Part shown: one piece after another, positions 6,350-50,882 of the stretch | Layout of the letters: every line of letters begins with the position of its first letter | Numbering within the stretch: the stretch's first letter is position 1 | Assembly (NCBI GenBank): GCA_964595305.1 | Contig: CAZQPW010000001.1 | Span: 9,722 to 73,721 of the forward strand | Source: an uncultured Candidatus Saccharibacteria bacterium | Lineage (GTDB): Bacteria > Patescibacteriota > Minisyncoccia > Phycocordibacterales > Phycocordibacteraceae | Length of the DNA stretch: 64,000 bases | Reading direction: 5' to 3' | Position numbers and translations under genes: made by a program | Notes under the pieces: generated by a model | What the model was told of the DNA's origin: nothing | What the model saw: the letters and a program-made list of their open reading frames with translations, nothing else | Databases searched by the model: none

Positions 6350-7030
6350 CTAACGTAAAAGTGTGTCGACAACAGACTTAACTGTAGCAAATGGTTGCGC
6401 ACCCGGTAACGGGGTTGTTTTTCCATCTTTAGTAACTAGGATGTTATGAGGTGTACCTTGGCCGCCTGTTGTGCGCGCAGCATTGAAGTCATCTGTAATT
6501 CTTGCCTGTGTTTCACCGCTTGCCACGCAGGCTGCGTGTGCCTTAGAGTCTACACCGACCTGTGCGGCATATTCGCTTACGCGCGCCATGTCAGTTCGCT
6601 CGTTTAGTGGGGCCTTGTCAAAAAGTATATCTAGATACTTGAAGTATGCCTCATTCCCACCAAGTTTAGCTACACACTCTGCGGCTTCAGCGAGTTTTGG
6701 TGCATTTGGGTGTAATTGTTCAAGTGGGAAGTTACGTAATACCCACGCGACTTTGCCACTTGGGCCGTACTCAGCCAATATTTGCTTCATGGTTCCATGG
6801 AATTGTTTGCAAAATGGACACTCAAGATCAGTGTATTCAATAACTATCACATCGGCATTAGGGTTTCCTAGAATATGGTCAGCTGCCGTAACTGGTGGCA
6901 CAGACGCTTCTGGTTGCGCTGGAGCTTTGGGCGAAGCTTTGCCGACAAAAAATAATGAACCTGCAATAAGAGCACCTGCAACTACAATTGCGATTGGCAC
7001 TGCGAGCTGATTTTGTTGTGATGTTTCCAT
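6350..7030 (-). CDS. Membrane-anchored DsbA-family thiol:disulfide oxidoreductase
   Basis: N-terminal TM segment. Thioredoxin fold with 'CPFC' active site and the DsbA-like layout (EYTDLECPFCKQFH). Confidence 0.8.
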   Translation of the reverse strand: METSQQNQLAVPIAIVVAGALIAGSLFFVGKASPKAPAQPEASVPPVTAADHILGNPNADVIVIEYTDLECPFCKQFHGTMKQILAEYGPSGKVAWVLRNFPLEQLHPNAPKLAEAAECVAKLGGNEAYFKYLDILFDKAPLNERTDMARVSEYAAQVGVDSKAHAACVASGETQARITDDFNAARTTGGQGTPHNILVTKDGKTTPLPGAQPFATVKSVVDTLLR

Positions 7031-7065
7031 AATGTTTCTTTCCTACATGGTACCATACATATTGT

Positions 7066-7854: not shown

Positions 7855-8412
7855 GGTGTGTGTCAGCGCATCGCTTGCTGCTGTTTCCCAGTTGCTGGTG
7901 TCTAGCAAGATTTCTTTCTTTTTTCCAAAGTCGTCATAGGCAAGTTTTTTGTTTAAAAGGGCATAATCATAAATTTGCTTTGTGAGCTTTACGTCATCAA
8001 TGCAGTATGCTCTTACTTTCTCCACCTTGCCTTGCTTCCACCACTCAACCGCATCAAGTCCGTGGCCACTCTTCTTTTTCCCTAATGTAGCTTTCGCAAT
8101 AGAGTCCAACTTAATTCTTCTTCCCAATACGTTTTTAACCTCCTTTAGGATGTCCAGCGAACGTATCTTAGTTAGGTCGCCCGCGTAATACTTATTGAGG
8201 ATCGGGATATCAAAGTGATCACTATTAAATCCAATAAGCATGTCTGCCCGCTCAAATATGGGCCACATTTGGGGTAGCTCTTCGACTGTGTAGCTAGTGT
8301 AAAGATCAGTCTCACTATCGTGAACACCAACTATAGTGAGCTGCATGGAACTCAAATCCCATCCACCGGGCACAGACGAGCTCGTCTCGATGTCGAAAGT
8401 AACTTTTCTCAT
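7843..8412 (-). CDS. DEDDy-type 3'-5' exonuclease, RNase H-like fold (YprB/PolB-exo-like)
   Basis: Exo I 'FDIETS', Exo II 'FNSDHFDIPIL' and Exo III 'YCIDDV' motifs. Confidence 0.7.
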   Translation of the reverse strand: MRKVTFDIETSSSVPGGWDLSSMQLTIVGVHDSETDLYTSYTVEELPQMWPIFERADMLIGFNSDHFDIPILNKYYAGDLTKIRSLDILKEVKNVLGRRIKLDSIAKATLGKKKSGHGLDAVEWWKQGKVEKVRAYCIDDVKLTKQIYDYALLNKKLAYDDFGKKKEILLDTSNWETAASDALTHTLPW

Positions 8413-8420
8413 GGGTAGAA

Positions 8421-9008
8421 TTAAATTGGGTGAGGTATAGGATTGATCTCAAGATTCTCTGCTTGAGCTGCACGAATAGTGCGCTCTACAAAGCGAGGGT
8501 GCGCAGCTTCCTCGAATAAAAACTCTCTTTTTTGGCCTGCTGTTTGGATAGTAACGTTTCCGAATCGTAATATGTTTTGAATAACCCCAACCGTGTGTGT
8601 CTCAACGTCTTGGATGTGCGATAGGTCTAGTATTGTAGCTACGTTCACGTTGAACATTCCGCGCAGCTCAAAGTCTATAACACGCCAATTTGTAATTATC
8701 CAAACGTCAAAATAATAGTCAGTCCATCTTACAAATATAAGTTGCCAGCAAATTAGCGCCCAAAGTGAACCAACGAGGCCTGCCAGCGCGCCAATTTTTG
8801 CTGCGGGCACACCTATTGAGGTGACTACGGTTGCTAAGATAGGGAGGATTATAAACGGTAAAATAAAGAGCAGAAGGACCGCAAAGACGTTTCTTAGTAG
8901 TACAAACCAGTGACTATGAACAACCGCACGTACCTCCTCGTTTGGTCGTGGATTATCAAGGGCTACCCCACTTGTATTGCTTTGTGAAAAAATATCTGAG
9001 AGATGCAT
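8421..9008 (-). CDS. Membrane protein with bacterial PH domain (bPH_2/YdbS-like)
   Basis: Two N-terminal TM helices followed by 'DYYFDVWIITNWRVIDFELRG...' typical of DUF304/bPH_2. Confidence 0.6.
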   Translation of the reverse strand: MHLSDIFSQSNTSGVALDNPRPNEEVRAVVHSHWFVLLRNVFAVLLLFILPFIILPILATVVTSIGVPAAKIGALAGLVGSLWALICWQLIFVRWTDYYFDVWIITNWRVIDFELRGMFNVNVATILDLSHIQDVETHTVGVIQNILRFGNVTIQTAGQKREFLFEEAAHPRFVERTIRAAQAENLEINPIPHPI

Positions 9009-12742: not shown

Positions 12743-13975
12743 ATGAAGAAAAAAAACCAGCTTACCTTTTGGAACATTTATGGCATCGCATGTATAGTAG
12801 TTTTTGTTTGCCTATTTGGTGTTGTTGCTTTTATAACATTTACTAACGGCCCGGCGGTTGTGCTACCAGATTCCATCGTTACGCCATCGAAAGCTCCTAG
12901 ATTTGCGTTAGGCGCGTTTAATCAAAAAAACACACAGCCGCAAATATTTTCTGACTCCGTAAAGTTTGGTTGGAATGAGGCGTCGTGGGGCGGCTCCGCA
13001 GTTCCCACAACAGAATTGCGCAGTACCGGAGAAAAATCTCTCAAAGTTTCGGTAGCTGAGGAGTGGGGAGGGGTAATTTTTGAGCCCAAAGCTGCCGTCG
13101 CTAGTGGGAGCTCTGTTTCATTTGACGTATCTTCAAAGGCCGCACTAGAATCTCTATATGTAGAAATCTCTTCCGGCACACGCAACTCATACCGTGCCCC
13201 ACTTTCTTGGTACAAGTCAGCACAAAATTCAGGCGATTGGATACATGTTGTGGTGCCGTTGTCACATGCGTCAACTACGCCGCACGCGCTAAAGAGTATA
13301 AGCTTCATTAGTAAGACCCCAACCGCACTTTACTTAGACTCGATCGGTCTTACAAATGAAGTAAGCGCTCAGAGCGTAGTATATGTAGCCCCACCAGACG
13401 GATCTCCAATTGTTATTACAGGAAAAAGTGTGCTTCCATACTCGGCACAATTCAATACGCTCTGGACTAGTGCGTATGGACGCTTTTCTCCACGCGGAGA
13501 GACCGCACTTATTGGACCAAAGGCGTCCGAAAAAGGTTCGCAGGGCTCGCTCGCAATATTTACTGACGGTGGCGCATGGACCGACTACCGCGTTACAACA
13601 CATATGAAGTGGGGGACCACTGAGACATATGGTTTGGTCGCAAGGTATACTGACGACCGCAACTACGTATCATGTGACTTTTCAGACAACTACTCAATGG
13701 TCAGTCTTTTTCAAGTAAAAAACGGATTTTCTACTCAACTAGGTGATACTCCAGAGCTGCCGCGCAAATCGTTTTACGAACGAGACATCGAACACGTTAA
13801 CGAAATCGAAGTCGTAGGTAATAGAGTATCGTGTTACTTAGACGGCGATAGGGTTATTTCAATGAACGTACCGGGCATATCTGCCACAGGTACTGTAGCG
13901 GTCGCCTCATGGACCCGTTACCCAGATGCATTTCCTCACCACATACTAAAATTTGAAGTTTCGCAGGTAAAATAA
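12743..13975 (+). CDS. Membrane-anchored extracellular protein with CBM-like and LamG/DUF1080-like (ConA-like lectin/glucanase) domains
   Basis: N-terminal TM anchor. C-terminal pattern 'TDYRVTTHMKW...GLVARYTDDRNYVSCDF...VGNRVSCYLDGDRVISMN' resembles the DUF1080/LamG jelly-roll. Directly follows the deacetylase-GT2 fusion. Confidence 0.4.
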   Translation: MKKKNQLTFWNIYGIACIVVFVCLFGVVAFITFTNGPAVVLPDSIVTPSKAPRFALGAFNQKNTQPQIFSDSVKFGWNEASWGGSAVPTTELRSTGEKSLKVSVAEEWGGVIFEPKAAVASGSSVSFDVSSKAALESLYVEISSGTRNSYRAPLSWYKSAQNSGDWIHVVVPLSHASTTPHALKSISFISKTPTALYLDSIGLTNEVSAQSVVYVAPPDGSPIVITGKSVLPYSAQFNTLWTSAYGRFSPRGETALIGPKASEKGSQGSLAIFTDGGAWTDYRVTTHMKWGTTETYGLVARYTDDRNYVSCDFSDNYSMVSLFQVKNGFSTQLGDTPELPRKSFYERDIEHVNEIEVVGNRVSCYLDGDRVISMNVPGISATGTVAVASWTRYPDAFPHHILKFEVSQVK

Positions 13976-22783: not shown

Positions 22784-23230
22784 TTACATCATCCCACCTT
22801 TCTTCATTTTTTTGTCGAGGGAAAGCTCGCCCCCGCCAGTCATGATGAGGGAAAGTCCAACGAGCGCCCACAATATATTGTATTCGTAACCATACGTAGC
22901 TCCTGAGATATAAAACCCACTCGCCATATGAACGGTGACAAATGCAACTATGCCGACGATAACGACAAACTTTGATGCCCAGTGCACACAAAGTCCAATG
23001 ATAAGCAGGATACCTGCAAGTAGTTCGCCGTACGAAAGTATATATGCCATAACTTCGGGAGCAGGGATGTGTAGTGACCCCAAGAACCCTGTGACCCCCT
23101 GGATGCCGAGCACGGTTATCTTCTGCCAACCATGCATAAGGAATATAACACCAAGCCATACTCGCAAAATTGTTGGAGCGTAGCTCGCATATTTATCAAG
23201 GCACATACATTTATTAAGTTTGTCCATCAT
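22784..23230 (-). CDS. DoxX-family membrane protein
   Basis: 'YAPTILRVWLGVIFLMHGWQK' and four TM helices. Confidence 0.75.
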   Translation of the reverse strand: MMDKLNKCMCLDKYASYAPTILRVWLGVIFLMHGWQKITVLGIQGVTGFLGSLHIPAPEVMAYILSYGELLAGILLIIGLCVHWASKFVVIVGIVAFVTVHMASGFYISGATYGYEYNILWALVGLSLIMTGGGELSLDKKMKKGGMM

Positions 23231-23306
23231 AGATATTAAAATACTAATTAGTAATACTACACAGTATATACCTTTTTATTCGTTTTGTGGTAAAGTTAGC
23301 ATAAAT

Positions 23307-23377
23307 TCCGGGTTCGTTTAACGGTAGGAAAGCGGCGTTTGTAGCCTTTAATTGGGGTTCGAGTCCCTGGCCCGGAA
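23307..23377 (+). tRNA. tRNA-like gene (good acceptor stem and T-arm; D and anticodon arms non-canonical, anticodon not assignable by eye)
   Basis: 5' 'TCCGGGT' pairs with 3' 'GCCCGGA'. T-loop 'TTCGAGT' with stem TGGGG/CCCTG. D-loop carries 'AACGGTA'. The reverse complement is not tRNA-like. Confidence 0.4.
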
Positions 23378-23513
23378 CTAGAAACTGCTAGCGCGTGCTG
23401 CGAAGCAGTATGCGCGCCCAGTTTCTTTTCGGACAGGGACGAGAAAGCCGGAGCGCAATGAGCGTAGCGAAGCGCGAGGCGGGGTCGCGACCGAACGCAG
23501 TGAGAGTTGTGAC

Positions 23514-23530
23514 CGAGTCCCTGGCCCGGA
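23514..23530 (+). repeat. 17-nt direct repeat of the tRNA-like 3' end ('CGAGTCCCTGGCCCGGA')
   Basis: Exact copy of 23360-23376, 137 nt downstream of the tRNA-like 3' end. The spacer carries two 'GCGAAGC' mini-hairpin motifs (23400-23406, 23467-23473) and a GCGCG...CGCGC hairpin. Confidence 0.8.
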
Positions 23531-23551
23531 GCAGACAAATCTGGTGGAAAT

Positions 23552-23601
23552 GACCCATTCCCGTCCAAAATTGATACTAAAACGAACTCAAAAACCTCTG
23601 G
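23552..23601 (+). repeat. Imperfect direct repeat A (~50 bp, ~80% identical to 24020-24070)
   Basis: 'GACCCATTCCCGTCCAAAATTGATACTAAAACGAACTCAAAAACCTCTGG' versus 'GACCCATCTCCGTCCAAAATTTCTACTCAAAGTCGCTCAAAACCCTTATGG'. Confidence 0.7.
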
Positions 23602-23644
23602 AATGCGAGGTGTAAAAAAATCAATCTAGTCGTATACTTGCAGA

Positions 23645-23983
23645 ATGTGGATTAGCAGCCCTTATCTGTTTTATGGCGTAGTGCTCTCGCTCCCATTTGC
23701 GATCGCGAACGCGCTTGTCGTGCTGAAATCGGAACTTTTCCTTTCTCTCTTACGCCCCTTCGGGACAACGACGGGATACGAGCAGGTACTCGTCCTCACC
23801 CTTATCACACTTGTCGGTGTCGGCGGCTTGGTAACATTAGTGCCGCTTTTGAGAGAAAAAAAGTTATATGTGGTAAATGCGATTATAGGAGTCGGATTTA
23901 TCATCTTCGCCCTCTTTGCCGGATATGGGCTCGGCGTCGACGTGTACCACTGCGACATCCTCAAAATTCCGAATTGCGATTAA
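23645..23983 (+). CDS. Small membrane protein (3 TM), hypothetical
   Basis: 112-aa hydrophobic ORF bracketed by the 50-bp imperfect direct repeats. Confidence 0.4.
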   Translation: MWISSPYLFYGVVLSLPFAIANALVVLKSELFLSLLRPFGTTTGYEQVLVLTLITLVGVGGLVTLVPLLREKKLYVVNAIIGVGFIIFALFAGYGLGVDVYHCDILKIPNCD

Positions 23984-24019
23984 TCAGTGGGTAGAGCAGA
24001 AACTTGATCGGAATCAATC

Positions 24020-24070
24020 GACCCATCTCCGTCCAAAATTTCTACTCAAAGTCGCTCAAAACCCTTATGG
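24020..24070 (+). repeat. Imperfect direct repeat B (partner of 23552-23601)
   Basis: See repeat A. Confidence 0.7.
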
Positions 24071-24145
24071 GGCTTGGTGGCCCGGGGTTCACGACCTCTA
24101 TGGGGAACTCGTTGACAGTCTGTTTATAGATAGTAATATTCATAC

Positions 24146-24385
24146 ATGACACGAGAAAATATTCGTTTTGAGCAAGCGGTTTCATTAATTGTTCAGGCAT
24201 GCGACAAAAGTCTACCTGATCGATTCCGGCAGCGTGGGCAGAAGTGGGGTGAGGCTGTGTTTAAAGCCCTAAATCCCGGAGTACGCATAGAAGCGATGAG
24301 GGAGGCTAACAACCGCCTTGAATTGAAAGAGAAAAAACGTAGAGAAAATTTTGAAGAGTTTTATCAAGTGGACATCGGCATATGA
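24146..24385 (+). CDS. Hypothetical protein
   Basis: 79-aa ORF. Its end overlaps the start of the next gene (24382). Confidence 0.35.
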   Translation: MTRENIRFEQAVSLIVQACDKSLPDRFRQRGQKWGEAVFKALNPGVRIEAMREANNRLELKEKKRRENFEEFYQVDIGI

Positions 24386-24705
24386 GCCTCGATCAGTTGA
24401 TTGAGTTCATAGTTAAGAACTATCAGTTTAACCCAACGAGATATCCTGACCTCGCAAATGGCACCGAGGCAATGAAAAAGCTTTTTCCAATAAATCACCT
24501 CGGTTTACACTTTACCGAGCAGGCAGGAAAAATTGCTGGACTACTTGAGGATGCTGGTCACGAAGGGAAGTCGCTGAACATGGACGGTCTTAAGGAGCAA
24601 GTTTATAAATCACTCATCAACACGCTCCGCCTCGCCGAACTTGTTGGCATGACTGGCATTGAGCTAGAAGAAATGGTAAAGAAAAAGTATTCAGAGCCAA
24701 GCTAG
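24382..24705 (+). CDS. MazG-like nucleotide pyrophosphohydrolase domain protein
   Basis: Small all-alpha protein. 'HFTEQAGKIAGLLEDAGHEGK' resembles the MazG EExxE/ExxD metal-binding helix. Confidence 0.4.
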   Translation: MSLDQLIEFIVKNYQFNPTRYPDLANGTEAMKKLFPINHLGLHFTEQAGKIAGLLEDAGHEGKSLNMDGLKEQVYKSLINTLRLAELVGMTGIELEEMVKKKYSEPS

Positions 24706-24709
24706 AGTT

Positions 24710-25135
24710 ATGGAGAGACCAAAGGTGGGGATAGGTGTGCAAGTTTACAAAGACGGAAAGCTCCTTCTTGGCAAACGAAAGGGCACTGGGTTTGGAGACG
24801 GCTTTTACTCCACACCAGGTGGGCATTTAGAAAATGGCGAAACATTTGAGCAGTGTGCTCGCCGCGAAGTGCGCGAAGAGGCGGGGATAGAAATTAAAAA
24901 TATCAAAATTATTTCGCTTGCGAACCTGTTCTCATCAAAAGCTCACTACGTAGATATCGGTATACACGCAGACTGGAAGTCTGGAACACCTACCGTGCTC
25001 GAGCCGGAAAAGTGTGAAGGGTGGGATTGGTACGACTTAAGAAAGTTGCCCAGACCGCTTATCGAGGGCGACAAGATGTACCTAAATGCAATTAGGACAG
25101 GCAAATGGTATGCAGGCACTAAGAGTGTAAAATAG
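24710..25135 (+). CDS. NUDIX hydrolase
   Basis: Nudix box 'GGHLENGETFEQCARREVREEAGIEI'. Confidence 0.85.
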   Translation: MERPKVGIGVQVYKDGKLLLGKRKGTGFGDGFYSTPGGHLENGETFEQCARREVREEAGIEIKNIKIISLANLFSSKAHYVDIGIHADWKSGTPTVLEPEKCEGWDWYDLRKLPRPLIEGDKMYLNAIRTGKWYAGTKSVK

Positions 25136-25137
25136 GT

Positions 25138-25605
25138 ATGAAGAAAGAGGTTGTGTCAGCTGAACATTTTGCAATATACTTTTCACCTCATTCTGCTCAC
25201 GCGATTGTGTTTGAGGGTAAAACCTACCCTACCGTAGAGCATCTCTACCAGTGCATGAAGTTCAAAGACAGCGATGAGGTTCAACTAGAAATTCGCAGAC
25301 AGCTCAGTCCGATATTGGCTTGGGAAGTTTCGCAAAGAAATAAGAAAAAACAGCATACGTGGTTTAGACATGAGGGATACAAGCTGCGCGTGATGAAAAG
25401 TTTGTTGAGAATGAAGGTGGCACAACATGCAGATGTTAAAAAGGCCCTCCTCGCCTCAAAAGAGAAAGAGATAGTGAAGCATATAACCACATACCCACCT
25501 GGAGACGGCTTTTGGGACGACGGTGAGTCGGGGGAAGGGTTTAATAATATGGGAAAGTTGTGGATGGAAGTACGAGAAGAGATTCTTACGATGGGAATTA
25601 AATAG
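25138..25605 (+). CDS. NADAR/YbiA-family (DUF1768) protein
   Basis: 'FSPHSAHAIVFEGKTYPTVEHLYQCMKF' matches the YbiA/NADAR N-terminal signature. C-terminal 'GDGFWDDG...NNMGKLWMEVR'. Confidence 0.7.
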   Translation: MKKEVVSAEHFAIYFSPHSAHAIVFEGKTYPTVEHLYQCMKFKDSDEVQLEIRRQLSPILAWEVSQRNKKKQHTWFRHEGYKLRVMKSLLRMKVAQHADVKKALLASKEKEIVKHITTYPPGDGFWDDGESGEGFNNMGKLWMEVREEILTMGIK

Positions 25606-25607
25606 GT

Positions 25608-26021
25608 ATGAATGAAGGCAAGAGCAAACATTTTGTAGGAGAGGTCGCGCAGAAAGCAATAGTAGAAAGCCGCGGTAAAATTTTAGTCAATAAAGGAAAG
25701 AATGATGTAATATGGGAGTTCCCAGGTGGGCGTTTGCATGATGGAGAGACTCCGGAAGAGGGGATGCGTAGAGAGTTGAGAGAAGAGTTTGGGCTCGACG
25801 TGTTTAACTTAAGACCATTTAAAGCGGTGCGATCCCTACACACTAAGTCGGGCACGTATCGAGTGCTCATCGTATATACTGCAAATTCAGCTGAGCCAAG
25901 CGCAACTCACAACGAAAATGAACTCGACGACTCAAAGTGGATTACTGCTAGCGAACTTAAGCCTCTCCCCATGTACGAAGATTGCGAAGAGGTGAAGCGA
26001 GATTATTTAAAATCGAAATAA
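25608..26021 (+). CDS. NUDIX hydrolase
   Basis: Nudix box 'GGRLHDGETPEEGMRRELREEFGLDV'. Confidence 0.85.
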   Translation: MNEGKSKHFVGEVAQKAIVESRGKILVNKGKNDVIWEFPGGRLHDGETPEEGMRRELREEFGLDVFNLRPFKAVRSLHTKSGTYRVLIVYTANSAEPSATHNENELDDSKWITASELKPLPMYEDCEEVKRDYLKSK

Positions 26022-26029
26022 ATTAGGCT

Positions 26030-26809
26030 TTGTGCTATAGTCAATTTATGGCTGCAGAGCAGGCTGGCATTCATATTTCTTTAGCACCGTACCACTTGGG
26101 AGAGGTTTGGGGGTTACCTATCACCGCGTCGCTCACCACTGCGTGGCTAGCCGCGGGCCTCATTATTATTTTCGCGCTTTTGTTTCGAAGGGGAATTAAA
26201 GAAGTTCCGGGCAGGCTCCAAAGTGTGGTTGAAGTGGCAGTCCTCGGTGTCTATGACTACGTTAAGGGTGTACTCGAGGATGAAGTTTTGGCGCGCAGGT
26301 ATTTCCCACTCATAATGTCTATTTTCCTATTCATAGCAGTTGGTAATTTGTTGGGGCTATTGCCGTTTGTGGGTGGCTCTATAGGTTTTGAGGACCCAAC
26401 TGGTGAGCATCATGGCTTAATCCCATTGTTTTATCCTATAAACACTGACCTAAACTTAACGCTCGCGATGGCCATAGTCGCTTTTATCGCGATTGAGTTT
26501 GCAGGCATTGCCGCACTTGGTGTGTTGAAGTATGCCTCAAAATTTGTTAATCTACACTCAGCTCTCGGCTTTATCGTCGGGATCATAGAGTTGGTTAGCG
26601 AGGTTGCACGACTCATCACATTTTCGTTTCGCCTTTTCGGCAATATCTTCGCGGGCAAAGTACTAATCTTGGTAGCAATGTTCTTCCTACCATATATCTT
26701 GCCTGTGCCGCTGTTGCTGTATGAGGTGCTCGTAGGTGTGATTCAGGGCGCTGTCTTTGCTCTCCTCACGCTCTTCTTTATTAAAATCGCGGTTACAGAA
26801 CCGCACTAA
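26030..26809 (+). CDS. atpB: F0F1 ATP synthase subunit a
   Basis: Polytopic. Conserved 'SFRLFGNIFAG' (essential Arg) region. First gene of the atp operon. The start may instead be the Met at 26048. Confidence 0.85.
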   Translation: MCYSQFMAAEQAGIHISLAPYHLGEVWGLPITASLTTAWLAAGLIIIFALLFRRGIKEVPGRLQSVVEVAVLGVYDYVKGVLEDEVLARRYFPLIMSIFLFIAVGNLLGLLPFVGGSIGFEDPTGEHHGLIPLFYPINTDLNLTLAMAIVAFIAIEFAGIAALGVLKYASKFVNLHSALGFIVGIIELVSEVARLITFSFRLFGNIFAGKVLILVAMFFLPYILPVPLLLYEVLVGVIQGAVFALLTLFFIKIAVTEPH

Positions 26810-27874: not shown

Positions 27875-29425
27875 ATGAACTCTGACATCATCCAAAGGCT
27901 GAAGAAAGAAATTGAGTCGCTCGGAACTGAGAGTGTACATTCGGGTACAGGCATCGTGCGCACGGTAGGCGACGGAATTGTCGAAATCGAAGGACTTTCG
28001 GGTGCCTCAATGTCAGAGATGATAGTTTTTGATGAATCGAGTGCACTTTCTCTTAAAGATGCACTCGAGAGGCCTGATGCGCTGTACGGGCTTATCCTAA
28101 ACCTTGAAGAGGCTGGTGTTAAGGCTATCGTGCTAGGCAATACTGCGCGGTTGGTTGAAGGTATGCGTGTATATGGTACAGGTAAGCTTCTCACTGTGCC
28201 TGTCGGAGAGGCGTTTGTTGGTCGTGTGGTTGATACACTTGGTAACCCCGTTGATGGCAAAGGAGCTATCAAATCGTCAGCCTCATATCCAGTTGAACGA
28301 GAAGCATATGGCGTTATTGATCGCTCTAGTGTTAATACTCCTCTCCACACAGGTATAAAGGCTATTGACTCGCTTATTCCCATTGGTCGTGGTCAACGAG
28401 AGCTTATCATTGGTGACCGCGGTACAGGTAAAACGGCTGTTGCCGTAGACGCAATTCTAAACCAATTAAACGAGCCTGAAGGTACACGTCCAATTTGCAT
28501 TTATGTTGCAATTGGTCAAAAAGAAAGTAAGACGGCTCGTATTGTTGGCTTGCTTACAGAGCGCGGTGCAATGGCGTACTCGATTGTGGTAACGGCTTCT
28601 GCGTCGGCACCCGCAGCCCTCCAGTTTCTTGCTCCTTATGCAGGAGTGGCAATGGCAGAATATTTTATGGAGAAAGGGAAGGACGTGCTCATAGTGTACG
28701 ATGATCTTTCAAAGCAAGCTGTTGCATACCGTCAACTTTCGCTTCTCTTGCGACGACCGCCGGGCCGCGAGGCATATCCAGGAGACATTTTCTACCTCCA
28801 CTCACGCCTCCTTGAGCGCGCAGCAAAACTAAGTAAGGAAAAGGGTGGAGGTTCTATCACCGCGCTACCAATCATCGAAACACAAGAGAACGATGTTTCG
28901 GCTTACATTCCAACAAACGTAATTTCGATTACTGATGGCCAAATGTTCCTTGAGTCAGATCTGTTTAACAAGGGAACTAGACCTGCAATCAACGTGGGTA
29001 TTTCTGTTTCTCGTGTTGGAGGTGCCGCACAAACAAAAGCTATGAAAAAAGTTGCTGGCCGCATTAAGTTGGACCTTGCACAGTTTCGTGAGCTCGAGGC
29101 GTTCATGCAGTTTTCGCAGGACCTTGACCCTGAAACTAAAAAGCGAATCGATTCCGGCAGAAGGCTCACCGCTATTCTCAATCAAGACAAGTACTCGCCA
29201 ATTCCGTTTGAGCGCCAGGTCGTTGCCATCTTTGCAGCAACCAATGGTTACTTTGATGCGTTTGATGCAGCAAGAATGCTAGAGCTGGAAAGGGGGCTTG
29301 TCTCCTACCTCGATCGCGAGGCGCCTAAAGTGCTCTCTATGATACGCGACGAGCGAGCAATCAGTGACGAGTGCGAAAAGGAACTTCGAGCCGCTATCCA
29401 AAGCTTTGTGGCGACAGTTAAATAA
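27875..29425 (+). CDS. atpA: F0F1 ATP synthase subunit alpha
   Basis: Walker A 'GDRGTGKTA' and conserved alpha motifs. Confidence 0.95.
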
Positions 29426-30357: not shown

Positions 30358-31755
<1,398 letters not shown>

Positions 31756-31757
31756 TT

Positions 31758-32756
31758 TTACTTACGGCCAATTTTAAGTGATTGCATTATTTGACTTAAA
31801 TCTGCAAGTCTTCTCTTAACTTCTTCGGCCTGATTCGAGTTAAGGTGCAAGACAGACGTTTTGTTTTTTAAGTGTGCCTGTTCGCTGCGGTGATACATGC
31901 GAAGGAAAAATTGATAGTGATCTTGAGCTTGTCTCATTGTTTCCTGAGATAGTGACAGCATGTTCTCTGCTGAAAGCTGCTCCAGTCGTCGAGGTATATT
32001 GGACCTAAGTTTTGCAAAAAAGTCTGCCTGCTTAGAATTTCTTATGTGTTTGATTGATTCTATTAGCAGTGTATTTTGAACTAACCTAAGCGGACCGATT
32101 TTAAATGATAGCTGTCGAGCCTTTGGGTTGTAAAATACATTAGCGGCTCCATCTTCATTAAACTCGAAATGCACGGCATCGGAACCATTGATTCTATTTT
32201 TCCCGGTCAGTGCTTTTCGTGAGTCACGTTCTAAATCTTCCACGCGGCGTTTTATATGCGCTCCTTCGGCGCCTATTACTTCCTTACCAATTTCTTCACG
32301 TGCGCGCACTATTGCTTTATCATCTCCCCAAACTGGGCGAGCATCGGTTGCTATACGAGCAGGCTGAACCCTATCATACATATTGTTGAAAAAACTAAAC
32401 GGTTTTCCAAACTGTTTCCATTCAATTATTGCAACTCTGTGAGGAGCAGCGCTTCTAAGAGTTGATTCGACTCTGGATCTCATAGAGTCTATGTTTACAT
32501 TTTCATCAACTAGTGCAATGATTTCGATCTCAGACTGGTGAGAACCTTTTTCAAACCTACCATCCGATCCAGGTATTGCAAGTGCCTGCACTCCCCTTAG
32601 TTCACTAGAGATCTTGCGTAGCGCATCCTGCATTTCTGCATGGATCAGCTGGTTAAAGCCATAGATTATCTCTCCGTACCTCCCGGGGCTTTGCGGCTTG
32701 TCGGACATTCCATTAAAGATGTCTTTTGCTTTCTCTACACTAAGATCGAACGACAT
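31758..32756 (-). CDS. Nucleotidyltransferase-fold protein (GlnD/DUF294-like) encoded antisense within the atp operon
   Basis: 'IPGSDGRFEKGSHQSEIEIIALVDE' fits the pol-beta-type NTase signature hG[GS]x(9-13)[DE]h[DE]h and the GlnD-like 'GxxGRxE...S[DE]I[DE]' pattern. Long helical C-terminal region. Convergent with atpD, divergent from atpC. Confidence 0.45.
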   Translation of the reverse strand: MSFDLSVEKAKDIFNGMSDKPQSPGRYGEIIYGFNQLIHAEMQDALRKISSELRGVQALAIPGSDGRFEKGSHQSEIEIIALVDENVNIDSMRSRVESTLRSAAPHRVAIIEWKQFGKPFSFFNNMYDRVQPARIATDARPVWGDDKAIVRAREEIGKEVIGAEGAHIKRRVEDLERDSRKALTGKNRINGSDAVHFEFNEDGAANVFYNPKARQLSFKIGPLRLVQNTLLIESIKHIRNSKQADFFAKLRSNIPRRLEQLSAENMLSLSQETMRQAQDHYQFFLRMYHRSEQAHLKNKTSVLHLNSNQAEEVKRRLADLSQIMQSLKIGRK

Positions 32757-40357: not shown

Positions 40358-41563
40358 ATGAAACGCGTTTGGTATCGCGTGTTGTCTATCGCACTGCCTG
40401 CCGCAGTGATTTTTACAATCTACTACGCGCCCTATTTCGCAGCCGCGGTGTACTGGCTCATCGCTGCACTTTCGCCACTCTGGCTTGCACCACTTCTGTT
40501 GTGGGCCGCTTGGCCGCTGTGGGTACACCAGCGTGAGGCGCAATTCTTAGCTCGAGTGTGGTATCGCACGTATGAAATAATTCCAGGCGCCTCAAACACG
40601 ACTCCGAAAGAAATGGAGCGCGTCTTGACCCAACTATACTCTCGAGTCGACATTACAAAGGAAGAGAGGTTTTTCATGGGTGTTGTTCGAGCGCCTTGGT
40701 CATTAGAATTGACCGCGTCGGGCGGGCTGCTCCGCATGTTTGTAACGGTTCCAACTGACTATGCGCCACAAGTGCTTCATGCTCTTAGAGAGAGCTATCC
40801 TGATATCGACTATAACGAAACTGACGACTTTGCTTCATCGCCACCAAGCACATTTTCTGTCGTGGTACGTGAATACACTCTCAAAAATCCGGACCCGTAT
40901 CCGCTAGTTAACGGTAGTAGTCAAACCTTCGACAAAAAAGATGCTTTCTTAAATACAATGGAAAAGTTACGCTCTCTGGACGAGAGTCAAACTGTCTGGA
41001 TCCAATTCTTGATTCGGCCGCACCAACGTGACTGGCCGATAAACGTCTGGGCGTGGCGAGGTGAAGCAGTGGACACGCTGCACCAGGACGCAGTAAAGGA
41101 AATTCAAAAAATAGTAGGAAAGTCAGGCGACCTGCGTGCGCTGTCAAATGAAAAGCGTGTGCTTGTCGAGTCGATAGAAGCCGCGCTCAAACGGCCTTCG
41201 TACGACGCTGGTATACGCGCAATACACTTCTTTAAACACTCTTCGCCGAGCCCTTCATTCCTAGACACGTTGTTTGAAGAGCATGATGGCGAGCATAACA
41301 GCTTAGTTGCGTATAATCCGCAGACTGTAGTTTCGTGGCCAACATCTGACCTACTCGCCGCTATCCCGCTGCTAAAGAATCGTTATTTCATCGGCCTGTT
41401 TGCTGGGCGATCGTACTTTACCTTGGCACACCCTGGAAAGGGAGCAGTTCTCAATGTTGATGAAATCGCATCGCTATTTCGTATTCCCAAGCCGCAAGTG
41501 CTGTCCGGAGTACATACGTCTAGTGGAACAAAGCTTGAGCCTCCGACTAATTTGCCAATATGA
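40358..41563 (+). CDS. Membrane-anchored hypothetical protein (401 aa)
   Basis: Two N-terminal TM helices (W/L-rich), then a large soluble domain. 4-nt overlap with mltG. Confidence 0.45.
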   Translation: MKRVWYRVLSIALPAAVIFTIYYAPYFAAAVYWLIAALSPLWLAPLLLWAAWPLWVHQREAQFLARVWYRTYEIIPGASNTTPKEMERVLTQLYSRVDITKEERFFMGVVRAPWSLELTASGGLLRMFVTVPTDYAPQVLHALRESYPDIDYNETDDFASSPPSTFSVVVREYTLKNPDPYPLVNGSSQTFDKKDAFLNTMEKLRSLDESQTVWIQFLIRPHQRDWPINVWAWRGEAVDTLHQDAVKEIQKIVGKSGDLRALSNEKRVLVESIEAALKRPSYDAGIRAIHFFKHSSPSPSFLDTLFEEHDGEHNSLVAYNPQTVVSWPTSDLLAAIPLLKNRYFIGLFAGRSYFTLAHPGKGAVLNVDEIASLFRIPKPQVLSGVHTSSGTKLEPPTNLPI

Positions 41564-45192: not shown

Positions 45193-47193
45193 CTACCAAA
45201 TCTTTGCGCGTGCTTTTGGTGCGCGGTACAGCTTGTCACTTTTTACAACTTTGTATGCGTCGTAAAATGAGTCGAGGTTTGAAACTGGACCATTGATGCG
45301 GTATAGGGCTGGCGAATGTGGATCAGTAGCTATCTGTGTTTTCAATCGTTCCTCACGAAGATGCTCGCGTTCGCCTTGTGCGAGTGAGAGAAAGAATCGC
45401 TGCTCTGGTGTTTTATCATCGATGTTCTTGCGACCGTGTCTATTCAGATGAACTTGGAATGCGTCGTATGCAATTGCAACGCCGCCCAAGTCTGCAATAT
45501 TTTCACCAAGTGTGAGCGAGCCGTTTACTTTGTGGCCGGGTATAGGCTCATATTCGTTAAACTGCTTGCGTAGTACGTCTGCTAACTTGTCGAAGTGAGC
45601 GCGGTCAGCCTTGCTCCACCAACCTTTAAGGTCACCCCGAGCATCGAACTTAGAACCCTCGTCATCAAAGCCGTGCGTCATTTCATGACCGATGGTCCAA
45701 CCGATGGCCCCATAATTAAGCGCGGCGTCTGCGCGCGCGTCAAAAAATGGCCACTGAAGAATCGCAGCAGGGAAAACGATCTCGTTAGCTTGAGGGTTAT
45801 AGTACGCATTTACTGTTTGTGGAGTCATAAACCATTCACGCCGGTCTACTTTCTTTCCAATTTTTCGAAATGCTTTGCGCGTTTCAAAAAGATTTGTGTT
45901 AATTGCGTTCCCGCAGTAGTCGTTTGCTTTAAGCTCGAGCCCGGCGTATGTCTTCCATTTCTTGGGGTAGCCAATCTTTCTGTCCATTGTTCTGAGCTTG
46001 AGTAGCGCCTTGCGCTTAGTTTGTGCGCTCATCCAATGTAGGTTTTTGATCCGAGCTTCAAATGCAACAAAAAGGTTGCTGACGAGCGCGTCAATAGCTC
46101 GTTTTGACTCATGCGTGAAGTGTCGCTCAACGTACATCTTGCCAAGCTCTTCACCAATATGAGCCTCAACGACACCTTGGACACGGCGCCACAATGGGCG
46201 CATCTGCTTTGTGCCCGAGAGCTCAGTTCCATAGAACGCAAACTTTGCTTTGATGAGCGGCTCATGGAGGTACGGTGCAAATGTGTTGATGAGGTGCCAG
46301 GTTAAGTACGCTTTATGTTCTTCTATAGAGCGCGAGGCAATAGTTGCAGCAGCGCCACGCATAAATAGCGGCTGACACACTACAAACATGCGCGGGCATT
46401 GTATACCCAATCCTTTAAAATAAGCATCCCAGGGAAGAGGCGCCTTTGCGCGGAGCTTACTAAGTGTGTAGGGAAAATAATTTTTGTTAGGGTCACGAAG
46501 GAGCACCTTGTCATGAGATGCGTGTGCAAGGGCTTTTTCAATCTCAAACGGGTTCAAGCGAATTTCAGTAACTTTCGAAACCGCGAGCGTATACTTTTGG
46601 AAAGCTTTCCTGACACGCTTAGACTCGTCATCTTGCTTAAGGTAGTAGTCGCGATCGGGAAGGGAAATCCCATCCTGAGAAAAATAGAGGACGTTCTTCG
46701 TGCTGTCTTTACCGTCTGGGCCAACGGAAATATCCCAAAATGCGGAAGATCCAATACGGTGCAGCTCACCAACAACACGCAACAAAGACTCAGTAGAGTC
46801 GATAGAGTCTATTTTACGAATATATGGCATGAGTGGCGCAAGCTTCTTTTTATTACGCGACTTGATGTCCATTCCAGACTTGTAAAACCGCGCAACTCTC
46901 ATAGCAGCATCGCCTCGCACCTTACCCGCGGTTACGTCACGGATAATTGCACGAACCTGTTCATCACTTTTTTTACGCAGCTGCATAAAAGCTCCCCACC
47001 ATGACTCCTCTTTAGGAATCGGGTTTTCTCTAAGCCATGTGTTGTTTACATGATGAAAAAAGTCGTCTTGCGGACGAACTTTTTTGTCGAGCTTGCTGGT
47101 GTCTACCCCCCAGTGCTTCATAGGCACTATTTTAGCATAAAACTCATATTTGCTTAAATACGTATAGTGTGCTATAATATCTATACATGGCAA
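45193..47193 (-). CDS. pepO: M13-family zinc metalloendopeptidase (PepO/neprilysin-like)
   Basis: 'HEMTHGFD' (HExxH), 'GENIADLGG' (ExxADxGG) and 'NAYY' motifs. Start possibly the Met at 47121. Confidence 0.85.
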   Translation of the reverse strand: MPCIDIIAHYTYLSKYEFYAKIVPMKHWGVDTSKLDKKVRPQDDFFHHVNNTWLRENPIPKEESWWGAFMQLRKKSDEQVRAIIRDVTAGKVRGDAAMRVARFYKSGMDIKSRNKKKLAPLMPYIRKIDSIDSTESLLRVVGELHRIGSSAFWDISVGPDGKDSTKNVLYFSQDGISLPDRDYYLKQDDESKRVRKAFQKYTLAVSKVTEIRLNPFEIEKALAHASHDKVLLRDPNKNYFPYTLSKLRAKAPLPWDAYFKGLGIQCPRMFVVCQPLFMRGAAATIASRSIEEHKAYLTWHLINTFAPYLHEPLIKAKFAFYGTELSGTKQMRPLWRRVQGVVEAHIGEELGKMYVERHFTHESKRAIDALVSNLFVAFEARIKNLHWMSAQTKRKALLKLRTMDRKIGYPKKWKTYAGLELKANDYCGNAINTNLFETRKAFRKIGKKVDRREWFMTPQTVNAYYNPQANEIVFPAAILQWPFFDARADAALNYGAIGWTIGHEMTHGFDDEGSKFDARGDLKGWWSKADRAHFDKLADVLRKQFNEYEPIPGHKVNGSLTLGENIADLGGVAIAYDAFQVHLNRHGRKNIDDKTPEQRFFLSLAQGEREHLREERLKTQIATDPHSPALYRINGPVSNLDSFYDAYKVVKSDKLYRAPKARAKIW

Positions 47194-47966
47194 TAGAAGC
47201 AGTAAACAAAGTGCAGCACTTTTTTGAAAGCCTACATGCGGGTATTACGTTTGAAAATTTTACGGACAACGAAATTGCCCGAATAATTCAAATACTCACA
47301 TCACTAAAGTTACCGCTTGTTAACGTCAAGGTGATTCGCAAGGCACGATTTGGTGACCTCGTAAGAGTTCCAGGTACTAAAAGTGCATATTTTGATGAGT
47401 ATGAAAACGCGATGTTCCTCGGCGAGCCTGTGCCTGGAACCGACTGGAAGGCCGGTACAATTTCGCTTAGTGAAATGTATTTTCGGGATGTGCCAACAGA
47501 CTTTACTCTGAAAGAGACGCTCGCACATGAAATCGCTCACTCCATATCTCCACTAGCATATATAAATACGGACCCTAAAGTGAGAAAAAGAAAAAGTAAT
47601 TTGTACTCAAAAAAGCAGGCGGAAGAAATATTTAATTTCGTGCAGCAAATAGGCCATCGGCTTCATGCCCGGGGTAATGGTTTCCCGTCATACAACATGC
47701 AAAACTACTATTACAACCTTCGTGTTGGGAGACATGCGCCCGGCTCAAAAATGCACTTCATGTTTGCAGATGAGATGTTTGCCTGCATCATACAAAACTA
47801 CGTAGAGCGCCCTGAAGCGCTTCGCGCTGTACTAACTGGGGCTGAGTTTAAGCAAGTTGAGCAGATAGTTAAAAAATTGCGAAAGTCTGGCCCAAAAATA
47901 TATTCTCGAAAAAAAGGTTCCGAAATTCCTGGCGTGACGCCACTCGCAAAGGTGCAAGTAAATTGA
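47187..47966 (+). CDS. Hypothetical protein with HExxH motif (possible metallopeptidase-like)
   Basis: 'LAHEIAHS' is the only recognisable motif. Divergent from pepO. Confidence 0.35.
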   Translation: MAIEAVNKVQHFFESLHAGITFENFTDNEIARIIQILTSLKLPLVNVKVIRKARFGDLVRVPGTKSAYFDEYENAMFLGEPVPGTDWKAGTISLSEMYFRDVPTDFTLKETLAHEIAHSISPLAYINTDPKVRKRKSNLYSKKQAEEIFNFVQQIGHRLHARGNGFPSYNMQNYYYNLRVGRHAPGSKMHFMFADEMFACIIQNYVERPEALRAVLTGAEFKQVEQIVKKLRKSGPKIYSRKKGSEIPGVTPLAKVQVN

Positions 47967-49781: not shown

Positions 49782-50882
49782 GTGGCACGAAAGGATTTTC
49801 TAATTGTTGAGATAGACTCATCAAGCGTTGGCGTTGTCCGATATGCGCACACCGCTGAACAGCAGATTGTAAGTGCGTCACGTACGCACTTTAGTACTCT
49901 TGGTGCAAAGAACAGTGCCGCTGCTGTAAGTCTTTTAACTGATGCAATAAAGAAAGAGCTCGCAAGTATACCGCCGCACTCATCTTCGGCGTGTGCAGTG
50001 TTTGTTGGGTCACCGTGGTATTTCCTTGAACTGCAAACACTACAAGCTGAGGTAAAGTCTCCAAGCACTTTTTCAGAACGTTCTGTAGAGGATCTACTTT
50101 CACGTGCGCGTAAAGAGCACGCAGACAAATCAGTAATCCCACTTAACGTTCGCGTGAATGGTTACTCTACCAAAATGAAAAAGCCTCTCATTGGAACAAC
50201 TCTTGAGTGCGACTCGGCAATTATTCAGATAGAACCGGAATTGGTGCAAGCGATTACTCCACTTCTTGCTCCGTATGCAGAGCGGGGCGCTGTTCAAATG
50301 TTTCCTTCGCCAATTGCAGCAGCAGATACATTATTGCAAATTGACGACACCCAGTATGGAACGGTAATTTCAATACACAAAGAGTCAACTGACATGGTGA
50401 TTGTCTCGGGGCACACCATAGGTTTTGTCGCCAGTGTTCCAATCGGCTCAAACACCATCCTTACTTCAATGAGCACCTCAGGTGTAGATATATTATCTAG
50501 ACTGGAGCTACTTGCTCGAGGCAAACTTGCACAATCAGAGGCTAGCGCACTTACGGGACAACTTATGGATGCATCTAGTGCGTGGATAGCAGCAGTGCGC
50601 GGTCTACTAGAGTCAGCACAAAATACTATTCCTGTTTCCCACCACTTTACAGTACTGACTAGTGACTCTGACTGGGGCTGGCTAGAAAGTGTTTGTAATC
50701 AAATTTCTCCAGAGCACCCAACTAGGTCTCGTAATATACTCTCAACGCTTCGTGATCAGTCACCATTACCTAAATCAATTTCTGACGGTTCGCTCGCTGC
50801 AGCACTTTCCACAGTTAAAGCTCGTTTGCAATCAAATGGAACACTTAACCCTAAAGCAGGCATGCTATACTCACTACTATGA
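49782..50882 (+). CDS. Actin-like ATPase-fold protein (PilM/FtsA-like), hypothetical
   Basis: 'LIVEIDSSSVGVV' (phosphate-1-like) and 'LQIDDTQYGTVISI' (phosphate-2-like). Size as for PilM. Confidence 0.3.
   Translation: MARKDFLIVEIDSSSVGVVRYAHTAEQQIVSASRTHFSTLGAKNSAAAVSLLTDAIKKELASIPPHSSSACAVFVGSPWYFLELQTLQAEVKSPSTFSERSVEDLLSRARKEHADKSVIPLNVRVNGYSTKMKKPLIGTTLECDSAIIQIEPELVQAITPLLAPYAERGAVQMFPSPIAAADTLLQIDDTQYGTVISIHKESTDMVIVSGHTIGFVASVPIGSNTILTSMSTSGVDILSRLELLARGKLAQSEASALTGQLMDASSAWIAAVRGLLESAQNTIPVSHHFTVLTSDSDWGWLESVCNQISPEHPTRSRNILSTLRDQSPLPKSISDGSLAAALSTVKARLQSNGTLNPKAGMLYSLL

Follow-up and report, generated by a model that had tools for sequence, protein, structure and literature searches.

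A 724-bp strain-variable cassette at the 3' end of a tRNA-Gln gene and a probable family of tRNA-tail elements in Paceibacteria

In the tycheposons of Prochlorococcus, elements accrete on the side nearest the tRNA, partial tRNAs are left between successive elements, and strain heterogeneity is highest beside the tRNA (bioRxiv 10.1101/2020.12.28.424599). Here we describe a comparable site in a bacterium of the Candidate Phyla Radiation (CPR), located in a 64,000-nt stretch of contig CAZQPW010000001.1 (forward strand; hereafter the window, whose positions serve as coordinates). In this window a degenerate tRNA-Gln(UUG) copy is followed by a 724-bp cassette carrying one membrane-protein gene, ORF112 (ORF, open reading frame), and then by a cluster of short genes, among them two for NUDIX hydrolases and one for a NADAR protein, upstream of atpB. 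Judged by the relatives recovered through AtpB and by the names borne by homologues of ORF112 and NADAR, the bacterium belongs to the Paceibacteria/Parcubacteria. Like the additive islands that integrase-carrying elements build near tRNAs (tycheposons, classical tRNA-site islands and integrase-less derivatives of the cis-mobilizable element (CIME) type), the cassette sits at a tRNA 3' end and has partial tRNA copies between its modules. Unlike them, it comes with no recombinase gene that we could find, carries a single cargo gene, is orders of magnitude smaller and has a degenerate distal tRNA copy; its mobility is what we infer. The cassette is a very small variant of known tRNA-site plasticity.

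The strain-variable cassette beside tRNA-Gln

Exact look-up of the NADAR protein identified two contigs of the same species from two other sequencing runs, the 129.8-kb Logan contig L001 and the 3.3-kb contig L002; exact look-ups of ORF112 and of the window's DoxX allele returned no record. Identity between L001 and the window is 99.25% on the left side of the junction and 98.8% on the right, and the flanks on both sides are collinear across 21 kb. BLAST alignment showed that the 724 bp are precisely missing in L001 and L002. The hexamer GGAACT occurs once in these contigs and twice in the window, at both ends of the indel. Immediately past the tRNA, both contigs read CTCGTTGACA; the sequence there, CTCGTTGACAGTCTG..., is the promoter-like TTGACA-16-TAATAT before the gene ORF79, and in L001 this promoter-like site begins 5 nt past the tRNA. 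A precise empty site, as expected of an integrative element or islet at a tRNA site, is thus present in a close relative. Because the direct repeats R1 and R2, ORF112 and the duplicated tRNA end (the "tRNA scar") are absent together from L001, they form one strain-variable block of 724 bp. The hydrolase genes lie outside this block and are present in both strains, and hence the cluster does not belong to the variable unit. The original prediction had placed everything from the repeats through the hydrolase genes in a small integrated island at the tRNA; a variable or inserted unit beside the tRNA is supported by the 724 bp, which differ in presence between 99%-identical strains, and the hydrolase cluster as a part of it is not supported.

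The G+C content is 0.51 in the cassette and 0.63 in its left part (23380-23535), compared with 0.47 in the window. The cassette opens with a long imperfect hairpin, which resembles a terminator for tRNA-Gln and which, together with the tRNA 3' end and a downstream reverse-complement segment, forms a larger palindrome. Further on, the 17-mer CGAGTCCCTGGCCCGGA, found at 23360-23376 and again at 23514-23530, is an exact duplicate of the tRNA 3' end. The imperfect direct repeats of about 50 bp that had been noticed on both sides of a 112-aa membrane-protein gene are real as well: their ungapped versions (23552-23597 and 24020-24065) are 78% identical, and the gapped alignment of R1 with R2 scores 47 against 15.8 +/- 2.2 (maximum 26) in 500 shuffles. 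A search for the repeat elsewhere located its 21-nt core GACCCATNNCCGTCCAAAATT at just these two sites in 64 kb, where 0 would be expected. At the right end, TGGCCCGG (24078-24085) is identical to tRNA-Gln, and GGGGTTCACGACCTCTATGGGGAACT (24084-24109) shares 16 of 26 positions with the final 26 nt of the tRNA, its last hexamer being the GGAACT of the right junction (24104-24109); as degenerate copies of the tRNA 3' end these pieces are suggestive only. As in tRNA-site islets, direct repeats of the tRNA 3' end flank the insert, namely the exact internal 17-mer, GGAACT at both ends and the distal 26-mer. The nested order of tRNA 3' end, R1, ORF112, R2 and tRNA-3'-like sequence is not producible by one tandem duplication but is producible by nested insertions at a tRNA-end site. 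An integron cassette, with attC-type imperfect palindromes around a promoterless ORF, was considered and rejected: the repeats bounding ORF112 are direct, no inverted repeat is reported inside them, the gene is preceded by a -10-like box, and IntI is absent. A sequence in contig L079 that appeared similar to the repeats by eye was also discarded, since local alignments at four loci did not exceed those of shuffles.

ORF112 is a conserved Parcubacteria/Paceibacteria membrane protein with three hydrophobic segments and 67 homologues (57-73% identity), nearly all of them 112 aa long. Its C-terminal motif D-x-Y-x-C-(D/N)-x-L-x-I-P-N-C-D, with two cysteines, is invariant. The gene is a compositional outlier, with a G+C content at third codon positions (GC3) of 0.593 (z +2.84). 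Its homologues lie in unrelated neighbourhoods, one of them 38 nt past a tRNA-Asn gene; no copy of the tRNA-Asn 3' end was found downstream in L005, and no flanking repeats or CCGTCCAAAAT motif were found around the homologues in L003-L007. Copies of the C-terminal part only (last helix plus GYGLGVDVYHCDILKIPNCD) occur at 8332-8469 and 9923-10003 in L003 and at 3366-3503 in L004, less than 4 kb from a full-length homologue, which suggests a shared C-terminal module or decayed paralogues. A -10-like TATACT ends 6 nt before the ORF112 ATG (window 23633-23647). The -10-like hexamer of ORF79 (window 24112-24148) ends equally close to its start codon, leaving no room for a Shine-Dalgarno sequence in either case, and both mRNAs may be leaderless or nearly so.

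The tRNA-Gln copy of the window differs from that of L001 (8900-8970) by six substitutions, with two stem pairs broken (G10-A25 and C28-U42) and atypical G32 and U37. Its Rfam tRNA score is 26 bits, under the gathering score of 29, whereas the L001 gene scores 57.1 bits. Eight substitutions, six in the tRNA and two just upstream, fall within 51 nt (23297-23347) as opposed to about 1% divergence elsewhere, and seven of the eight replace G or C by A or T. The window copy is probably a decaying gene, and the cassette-bearing haplotype may be a divergent imported allele in which that copy decays. Substitutions between the window and L001 are patchy in other places too (24730-24966, 26000-26250, 29000-29250 and 31250-31750), for example with 17 over a 237-nt segment of NUDIX1 and 25 over a 250-nt segment of atpA; over whole genes, NUDIX1 differs by 18 nt and 2 aa and AtpA by 34 nt and 2 aa. 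Because these patches are almost all synonymous, they look like imports by homologous recombination from more divergent relatives, under purifying selection. The substitution patch in tRNA-Gln differs from them in kind. In addition, L002 (SRR34704501) starts inside the tRNA-Gln gene; the assembly thus breaks there, as expected if the sample is heterogeneous at this site.

Table 1. Features of the locus and members of the tRNA-tail family in other contigs
Feature	Contig	Coordinates	Strand	Basis
DoxX	window	22784-23230	-	
tRNA-Gln(UUG), degenerate copy	window	23307-23378	+	ARAGORN; Rfam tRNA score
Left junction GGAACT (last bases of the tRNA plus one more)	window	23374-23379	+	6-nt BLAST overlap, L001 vs window
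Strain-variable cassette, 724 bp, missing from L001/L002	window	23380-24103	+	alignment
Long imperfect hairpin with T-run, terminator-like	window	23380-23426	+	inverted repeat I2; fold; same layout in relatives
tRNA-tail structured element	window	23430-23530	+	covariance-model match
Exact 17-nt copy of tRNA-Gln 3' end (T-loop C56 to acceptor-stem end)	window	23514-23530	+	
Direct repeat R1, 69 nt	window	23529-23597	+	gapped alignment
ORF112, membrane protein	window	23645-23983	+	homologues; hydrophobic segments
Direct repeat R2, 72 nt	window	23994-24065	+	gapped alignment
Degenerate tRNA-Gln-3'-like pieces (suggestive only)	window	24067-24109	+	local alignment
Promoter-like TTGACA-16-TAATAT	window	24112-24139	+	consensus scan
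ORF79, first operon gene	window	24146-24385	+	
ORF107	window	24382-24705	+	uncharacterised helical family
NUDIX hydrolase 1 (NUDIX1)	window	24710-25135	+	Pfam; Nudix box
Stand-alone NADAR, YbiA-like fold	window	25138-25605	+	Pfam
NUDIX hydrolase 2 (NUDIX2)	window	25608-26021	+	Pfam; Nudix box
atpB, first gene of F-type ATP synthase operon	window	26030-26809	+	
tRNA-tail family member	L079	~6900-7045		
tRNA-tail family member	L058	7494-7590		
tRNA-tail family member	L046	7042-7167	-	
tRNA-tail family member	L050	7422-7546	-	
tRNA-tail family member	L044	6421-6528		
tRNA-tail family member	L071	1615-1739		
tRNA-tail family member	L086	8853-8976	-	
tRNA-tail family member	L059	5521-5628		
tRNA-tail family member	L061	4613-4870		
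tRNA-tail family member	L011	5655-5753		
tRNA-tail family member	L015	2480-2739	-	
tRNA-tail family member	L108	2852-3182	-	

A family of tRNA-tail elements

Short-word BLAST of the insert against AtpB-anchored loci recovered its GC-rich core in several species, always a short way behind a tRNA. The corresponding covariance model (also named R1, and distinct from the direct repeat R1) matched the window at 23439-23519 with 55.1 bits (E 5e-12), had no match in L001, and gave 22 matches in 1.24 Mb. These tRNA-tail elements are probably a new family of about 100-170 nt in Paceibacteria. In the window, the 5' strand CGGACAGGGACGAG (23430-23443) is partly complementary to the tRNA 3' end, the core reads GAAAGCCGGAGCG...GCGAGGCGGGGTCGCGACC...GTTGTGACC, and the 3' strand is the exact copy of the tRNA-Gln 3' end.

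The architecture shared by the members begins with the tRNA, followed by a terminator-like hairpin and by a 5' strand whose sequence is the tRNA 3' end in reverse complement, interrupted in some cases by a small conserved hairpin. The core consists of GAAAG-GNC-GGA-G, a variable hairpin and C-GAG-GNC, and then of GGGGTCG(C/A)GA, a second variable hairpin and (T/C)GTGACC, after which comes the 3' strand. This last strand exactly repeats 12-19 nt of the adjacent tRNA 3' end from T-loop C56 onwards in "long" forms, and "short" forms keep GTGG/CCAC only. Long forms lie next to Ala-UGC, Ala-GGC and, in L011, Val-CAC tRNAs, and in the window next to Gln-UUG. Among 15 elements lying no more than 100 nt downstream of a tRNA (Ala, Val or Gln), 10 carry an exact tail copy of 12-19 nt and an eleventh one of 8 nt. 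Many elements are followed by a terminator-like hairpin of their own. Tandem, truncated and decayed copies exist, as do arrays without a nearby tRNA (L067).

RNAalifold predicted a three-way junction with compensatory changes. Across the alignment 93.8% of cells are paired and 13 of 16 pairs are changed on both sides, while slid controls reach 15-44% and none of 500 shuffles attains the observed score; these pair counts come from an alignment fitted to the covariance model, which inflates pairing. One G-U pair is conserved in 17 of the 22 matches and the element always lies on the tRNA strand, so that the structure is strand-specific.

In Rfam 15, no family reached its gathering threshold in the window, and at E<=10 only chance-level matches fell on the element (window and L071). 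Scanning viral contigs with the element core gave 78 matches, about the chance number by estimate and not by calculation; the only real element among them, in the IMG/VR contig L108, lies among cellular genes. A limited literature search found no description of such tRNA-tail elements in Patescibacteria, which is weak evidence of novelty. With known structured RNAs (tRNA-like RNAs, YrlA/Y RNA, bridge and TIGR guides) the elements share a covarying three-way junction, a purine-rich GGA/GAG internal loop, a tandem arrangement in some genomes, and segments that match a specific DNA target, here the tRNA 3' end, on both strands. Unlike in IS110 bridge RNAs and TIGR guides, these target-matching segments pair with each other and do not lie in open loops (PMC12045711); nor was a Nop-domain or IS110 gene found in the L001-annotated equivalent of 14.4-35.6 kb or among 20 window ORFs scanned. 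TIGR or bridge-RNA guides, whose guide loops are open and which depend on a Nop or IS110 protein, were therefore set aside. Group I introns do not fit in size or position (PMC13011429), the hammerhead core is absent, a T-box does not fit, and ends of the IS200/IS605 type would require a TnpA or TnpB gene, of which none is present.

Other features were seen around atpB in related genomes. In about 40% of 80 loci, the 4 kb upstream of atpB contain a tRNA, in most cases tRNA-Ala. Dense clusters of tRNAs (Ala, Val, Pro, Arg) lie within 1-3.5 kb upstream of atpB in L011 (5531-7172), L032 (5220-6698) and L059 (4009-5459), and a Nudix-like ORF stands among the clustered tRNAs in L032 and L059.

The hydrolase operon upstream of atpB

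The genes between the cassette and atpB are co-directional, with spacings of -4 to +4 nt (one 4-nt overlap, otherwise gaps of 2-4 nt), in agreement with the original description of short and partly overlapping genes. That description began the cluster with a MazG-like gene and overlooked ORF79, the actual first gene. Its 79-aa product matched no family, and the L001 copy is 100% identical with one synonymous difference. The promoter-like TTGACA-16-TAATAT, at 10 of 12 consensus matches and 6 nt before the ORF79 ATG, is the best such site in the 4.2-kb region scanned, and a scan for terminator-like sites found none between the hydrolase genes and atpB. The hydrolase genes may thus be co-transcribed with the atp genes. 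Both the codon usage (score) and the GC3 of the cluster are within about one standard deviation of the window genes, and the cluster is nearly identical in both strains and under purifying selection. A compositional test of the island idea therefore singled out ORF112 and left the hydrolase genes looking native. Among 80 related species aligned by AtpB, the cluster was upstream of atpB in none, but no other upstream gene was shared either; this synteny thus says nothing on island status. Elsewhere in the window, seven sizeable ORFs have no Pfam match at E<=1e-5, their coordinates including 12743-13975, 31758-32756(-), 40358-41563, 47187-47966, 49782-52129 and 60602-61321(-).

ORF107, the supposed MazG, had no Pfam or NCBIfam match even at E<=10, the MazG profile PF03819 included. 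It belongs to an all-helical family of proteins of about 105-115 aa. At E<=0.001 the family counts 503 cluster representatives, and apart from a faint similarity to the MazG-like PF12643 (4 of 83 family members, best E 0.014) its sequences match nothing in Pfam or PDB. The predicted model (pLDDT 81) has four helices; Foldseek ranks HisE, MazG, YpjD and DR2231 highest, and the probability is 0.85-0.99 for 11 of the top 13 neighbours. ORF107 resembles the MazG/HisE all-alpha nucleoside triphosphate pyrophosphohydrolases only faintly, through these structural neighbours and the PF12643 matches, and lacks their acidic metal-binding motif. In place of the MazG motif EExxE...ExxD the family has K-T-A-G-K and K-S-L-I-N-T, with His/His/Glu/His conserved instead, a correspondence that rests on a weak alignment to 1vmg. 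H39 and H60 are invariant, and H43, K46, G49, E56, Y21 and P22 nearly so. Judged by its sequence, ORF107 is not a canonical MazG. Its homologues occupy other neighbourhoods.

For both NUDIX proteins the earlier assignment stands. They exceed the Pfam cut-off for PF00293 (71.7 and 62.1 bits for NUDIX1 and NUDIX2; cut-off 21.1), and their Nudix boxes (GX5EX7REUXEEXGU) are intact at residues 38-60 and 41-63, respectively. Among the ADP-ribose pyrophosphatase and NAD diphosphatase subfamilies, the best score is 51 bits for NudC against a cut-off of 158, and the ADP-ribose models give 16-24 against 79-248. A proline about 16 residues past the Nudix box is a signature of ADP-ribose pyrophosphatases, and SQPWPFPxS is the NudC motif; downstream of the boxes neither is present in either protein. 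With equivalog scores far under the cut-offs and these signatures missing, the substrate class is not assignable. The two resemble small MutT-type hydrolases in their intact box, their length (137-141 aa) and their best NCBIfam similarity (NudC, MutT and RppH types), and are unlike them in that every equivalog score falls far under its cut-off.

The NADAR gene was also recognised correctly: its product scores 69.1 bits with PF08719 (cut-off 35.1) and aligns with E. coli YbiA (PDB 2B3W) at E 3.8e-21. A profile check of the original prediction thus confirmed NADAR and did not confirm MazG. The roles of the NADAR Glu and Lys residues and of a subfamily position are described (PMC11543638, PMC11125620); the residue at that position is Glu in YbiA, Asp in BC4488 and His in phage gp30.3, and the YbiA-family Glu is E125 of the P. 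nicotianae enzyme, in the last strand, and lies in VEH of E. coli YbiA (PMC11543638, PMC11125620). Of the ADP-ribose-site residues in the present protein, E34 does not vary among homologues, which have either K or R in place of K41. At the subfamily position it has K114 (IVKHI), invariant in 13 Paceibacteria homologues, and this Paceibacteria subfamily has a TYPP insertion before the GDGFWDDG loop (residues 112-128). With Lys in place of Glu, the protein falls outside the YbiA family. It shares with the YbiA/NADAR superfamily the Pfam score, the YbiA alignment and the E34/K41 equivalents, and departs from it in having no DarT, YarT or riboflavin-gene neighbour and in scoring under both NCBIfam cut-offs. 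It does not fit the DarT-NADAR (DarTG1) or YarT-YbiA toxin-antitoxin systems, its neighbours being two Nudix genes and its subfamily residue a Lys. Homologues of 52-61% identity are common in Paceibacterota and lie in housekeeping neighbourhoods. The recurrent pairing of NADAR with Nudix that had been supposed was not seen in the two contexts read around the closest homologues; a Nudix neighbour occurred in one of five more distant loci, all from relatives in the metagenome.

Searches for defence functions gave little. No ART domain was detected in the six proteins with Pfam, NCBIfam or PADLOC. In PADLOC-DB 2.0, both NUDIX proteins matched the single-gene candidate PDC-S07 (E 1e-11 and 3.5e-17), probably a generic Nudix similarity, and NADAR, ORF79, ORF107 and ORF112 were unmatched. 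The NCBIfam model DS32_2 scored 64 bits against a cut-off of 240, and PHROGs, like PADLOC, gave generic Nudix or NADAR matches only. The idea that the cluster degrades immune signalling nucleotides accordingly found no matching defence or anti-defence model save PDC-S07. ORF79-ORF107-NUDIX-NADAR-NUDIX reads as an ordinary native chromosomal operon, predicted to encode small "housecleaning" enzymes that hydrolyse nucleotides and N-glycosides. It is neither an island nor a module recognisable as serving defence or anti-defence.

Origin of the cassette and its meaning

On balance, we consider it probable that the cassette grew by accretion at the tRNA end through site-specific recombination, beside a native operon, and that its haplotype spread between strains. 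Integrase-type insertions, served by a recombinase acting in trans, would have followed one another at the tRNA 3' end and would each have left a partial tRNA copy. The proximal module would comprise the hairpin and the ~100-nt tRNA-tail element ending in the 17-nt tRNA copy, and the distal module ORF112 bracketed by R1 and R2 and ending in degenerate tRNA-3'-like sequence plus GGAACT. The haplotype would then have moved between strains by homologous recombination, and L001 would represent the empty or precisely excised site. If the cassette is excised as a circle, its predicted junction is ...CCTCTATGG-GGAACT-AGAAACTGCTAGC....

Several points weigh against this account. A length of 724 bp, and even more one of about 150 bp, is very small for a circular integrative element. 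No site-specific recombinase was found in the cassette, which encodes ORF112 alone, in the L001-annotated equivalent of 14.4-35.6 kb, or among 20 integrase-sized window ORFs (no Phage_integrase match). The tRNA similarity at the right end is weak, as 36 of 1000 shuffles equal its local-alignment score. The strain comparison for this species comprises three contigs (the window, L001 and L002), and the proposed co-transcription of the hydrolase genes with the atp genes rests on consensus scans. Moreover, a deletion in the L001 lineage through the 6-nt GGAACT yields the same two alleles, and the direction of the change is not established. Such a deletion is the main rival, in which the 724 bp would be ancestral native DNA lost from L001 and L002 between GGAACT microhomologies, and the internal repeats would be old local duplications. 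Slippage and microhomology deletions typically have a short direct repeat at their ends, here of 6 nt, ORF112 is widely conserved in Paceibacteria, and no integrase is at hand. We nevertheless regard native DNA as unlikely, since the GC3 of ORF112 and the 63% G+C of the left part are atypical, the left boundary coincides with the tRNA gene end to the base, the internal exact tRNA-3' copy belongs to a family that carries neighbour-tRNA tails in other species, and the clustered substitutions of the tRNA point to import of a divergent haplotype. That an assembly chimera was joined through the repeated tRNA 3' end is hardly credible. The window is a metagenome-assembled contig and the start of L002 inside the tRNA indicates that assemblies break here, but 21 kb of L001 align collinearly with the flanks on both sides, assembly k-mers are longer than the shared repeats (6 and 17 nt), and ORF112 is intact and homologous to real genes.

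Other explanations concern the parts of the locus. The tRNA-tail element might be a functional small RNA, whose closing stem is kept identical to the tRNA by selection or gene conversion and which might sequester or mimic the tRNA 3' end. Its strong covariation, its strand-specific structure always on the tRNA strand and the terminator-like hairpin that often follows it speak for this, whereas its absence from a 99%-identical strain, the truncated or decayed copies and the arrays without a nearby tRNA, the terminator-like hairpin usually standing between element and tRNA with no promoter evident, and pair counts taken from an alignment fitted to the model speak against it. We hold this possibility to be doubtful, although it can coexist with mobility. 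R1 and R2 could instead be duplicated regulatory sites (operator- or UP-like) for the ORF112 and hydrolase-atp promoters, as R1 ends 35 nt before TATACT and R2 46 nt before TTGACA. The different spacings, however, and the position of both repeats inside the indel, which means that the L001 operon works without R2, make such a role improbable, as does the finding that no significant R-like sequence occurs in the rest of the window or at the corresponding position of other loci. Finally, the MazG/Nudix/NADAR/Nudix cluster itself had been proposed to be a small tRNA island for ADP-ribose/NAD processing or degradation of immune nucleotides. It adjoins a tRNA with a duplicated 3' end and was not upstream of atpB in the 80 related species, both Nudix proteins match PDC-S07, and NADARs reverse guanine ADP-ribosylation in vitro (PMC11125620). 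Yet the cluster is present in the strain without the cassette and lies outside both tRNA-copy boundaries; its composition is native, and its promoter is apparently shared with the atp genes with no terminator between. ORF107 and NADAR homologues are unlinked elsewhere, there is no ART or DarT neighbour, ORF107 lacks the MazG catalytic residues, and the 80-species synteny is uninformative, no upstream gene being shared at all. An island comprising the hydrolase genes is therefore very improbable.

Had it been such an island, the cluster would have hinted at anti-defence by means of nucleotides in a CPR bacterium, a reading that does not hold. The analysis yielded two by-products, a NADAR subfamily in which Lys replaces the subfamily-defining acidic or His residue, and about 500 clusters of small His-rich helical proteins that can be mistaken for "MazG". 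As for the cassette, the locus presents a case, clean and precise to the base, of a gene gained or lost beside a tRNA in an ultra-reduced genome, with no recombinase found nearby. We tentatively propose, as a possibility well short of probable, that the "tRNA scar" is a copy of an undescribed Paceibacteria (CPR) family that inserts, or is maintained, beside tRNAs, and that the 724-bp unit is a minimal integrase-less mobile cassette using the same site. If true, ultra-small genomes would harbour a novel type of miniature element that targets tRNAs, either mobile or a regulatory RNA. If the element is an RNA, it would represent a new tRNA-linked class of non-coding RNA with strong covariation; if it is mobile, it would show how CPR genomes, poor in classical mobile elements, shuffle single genes.

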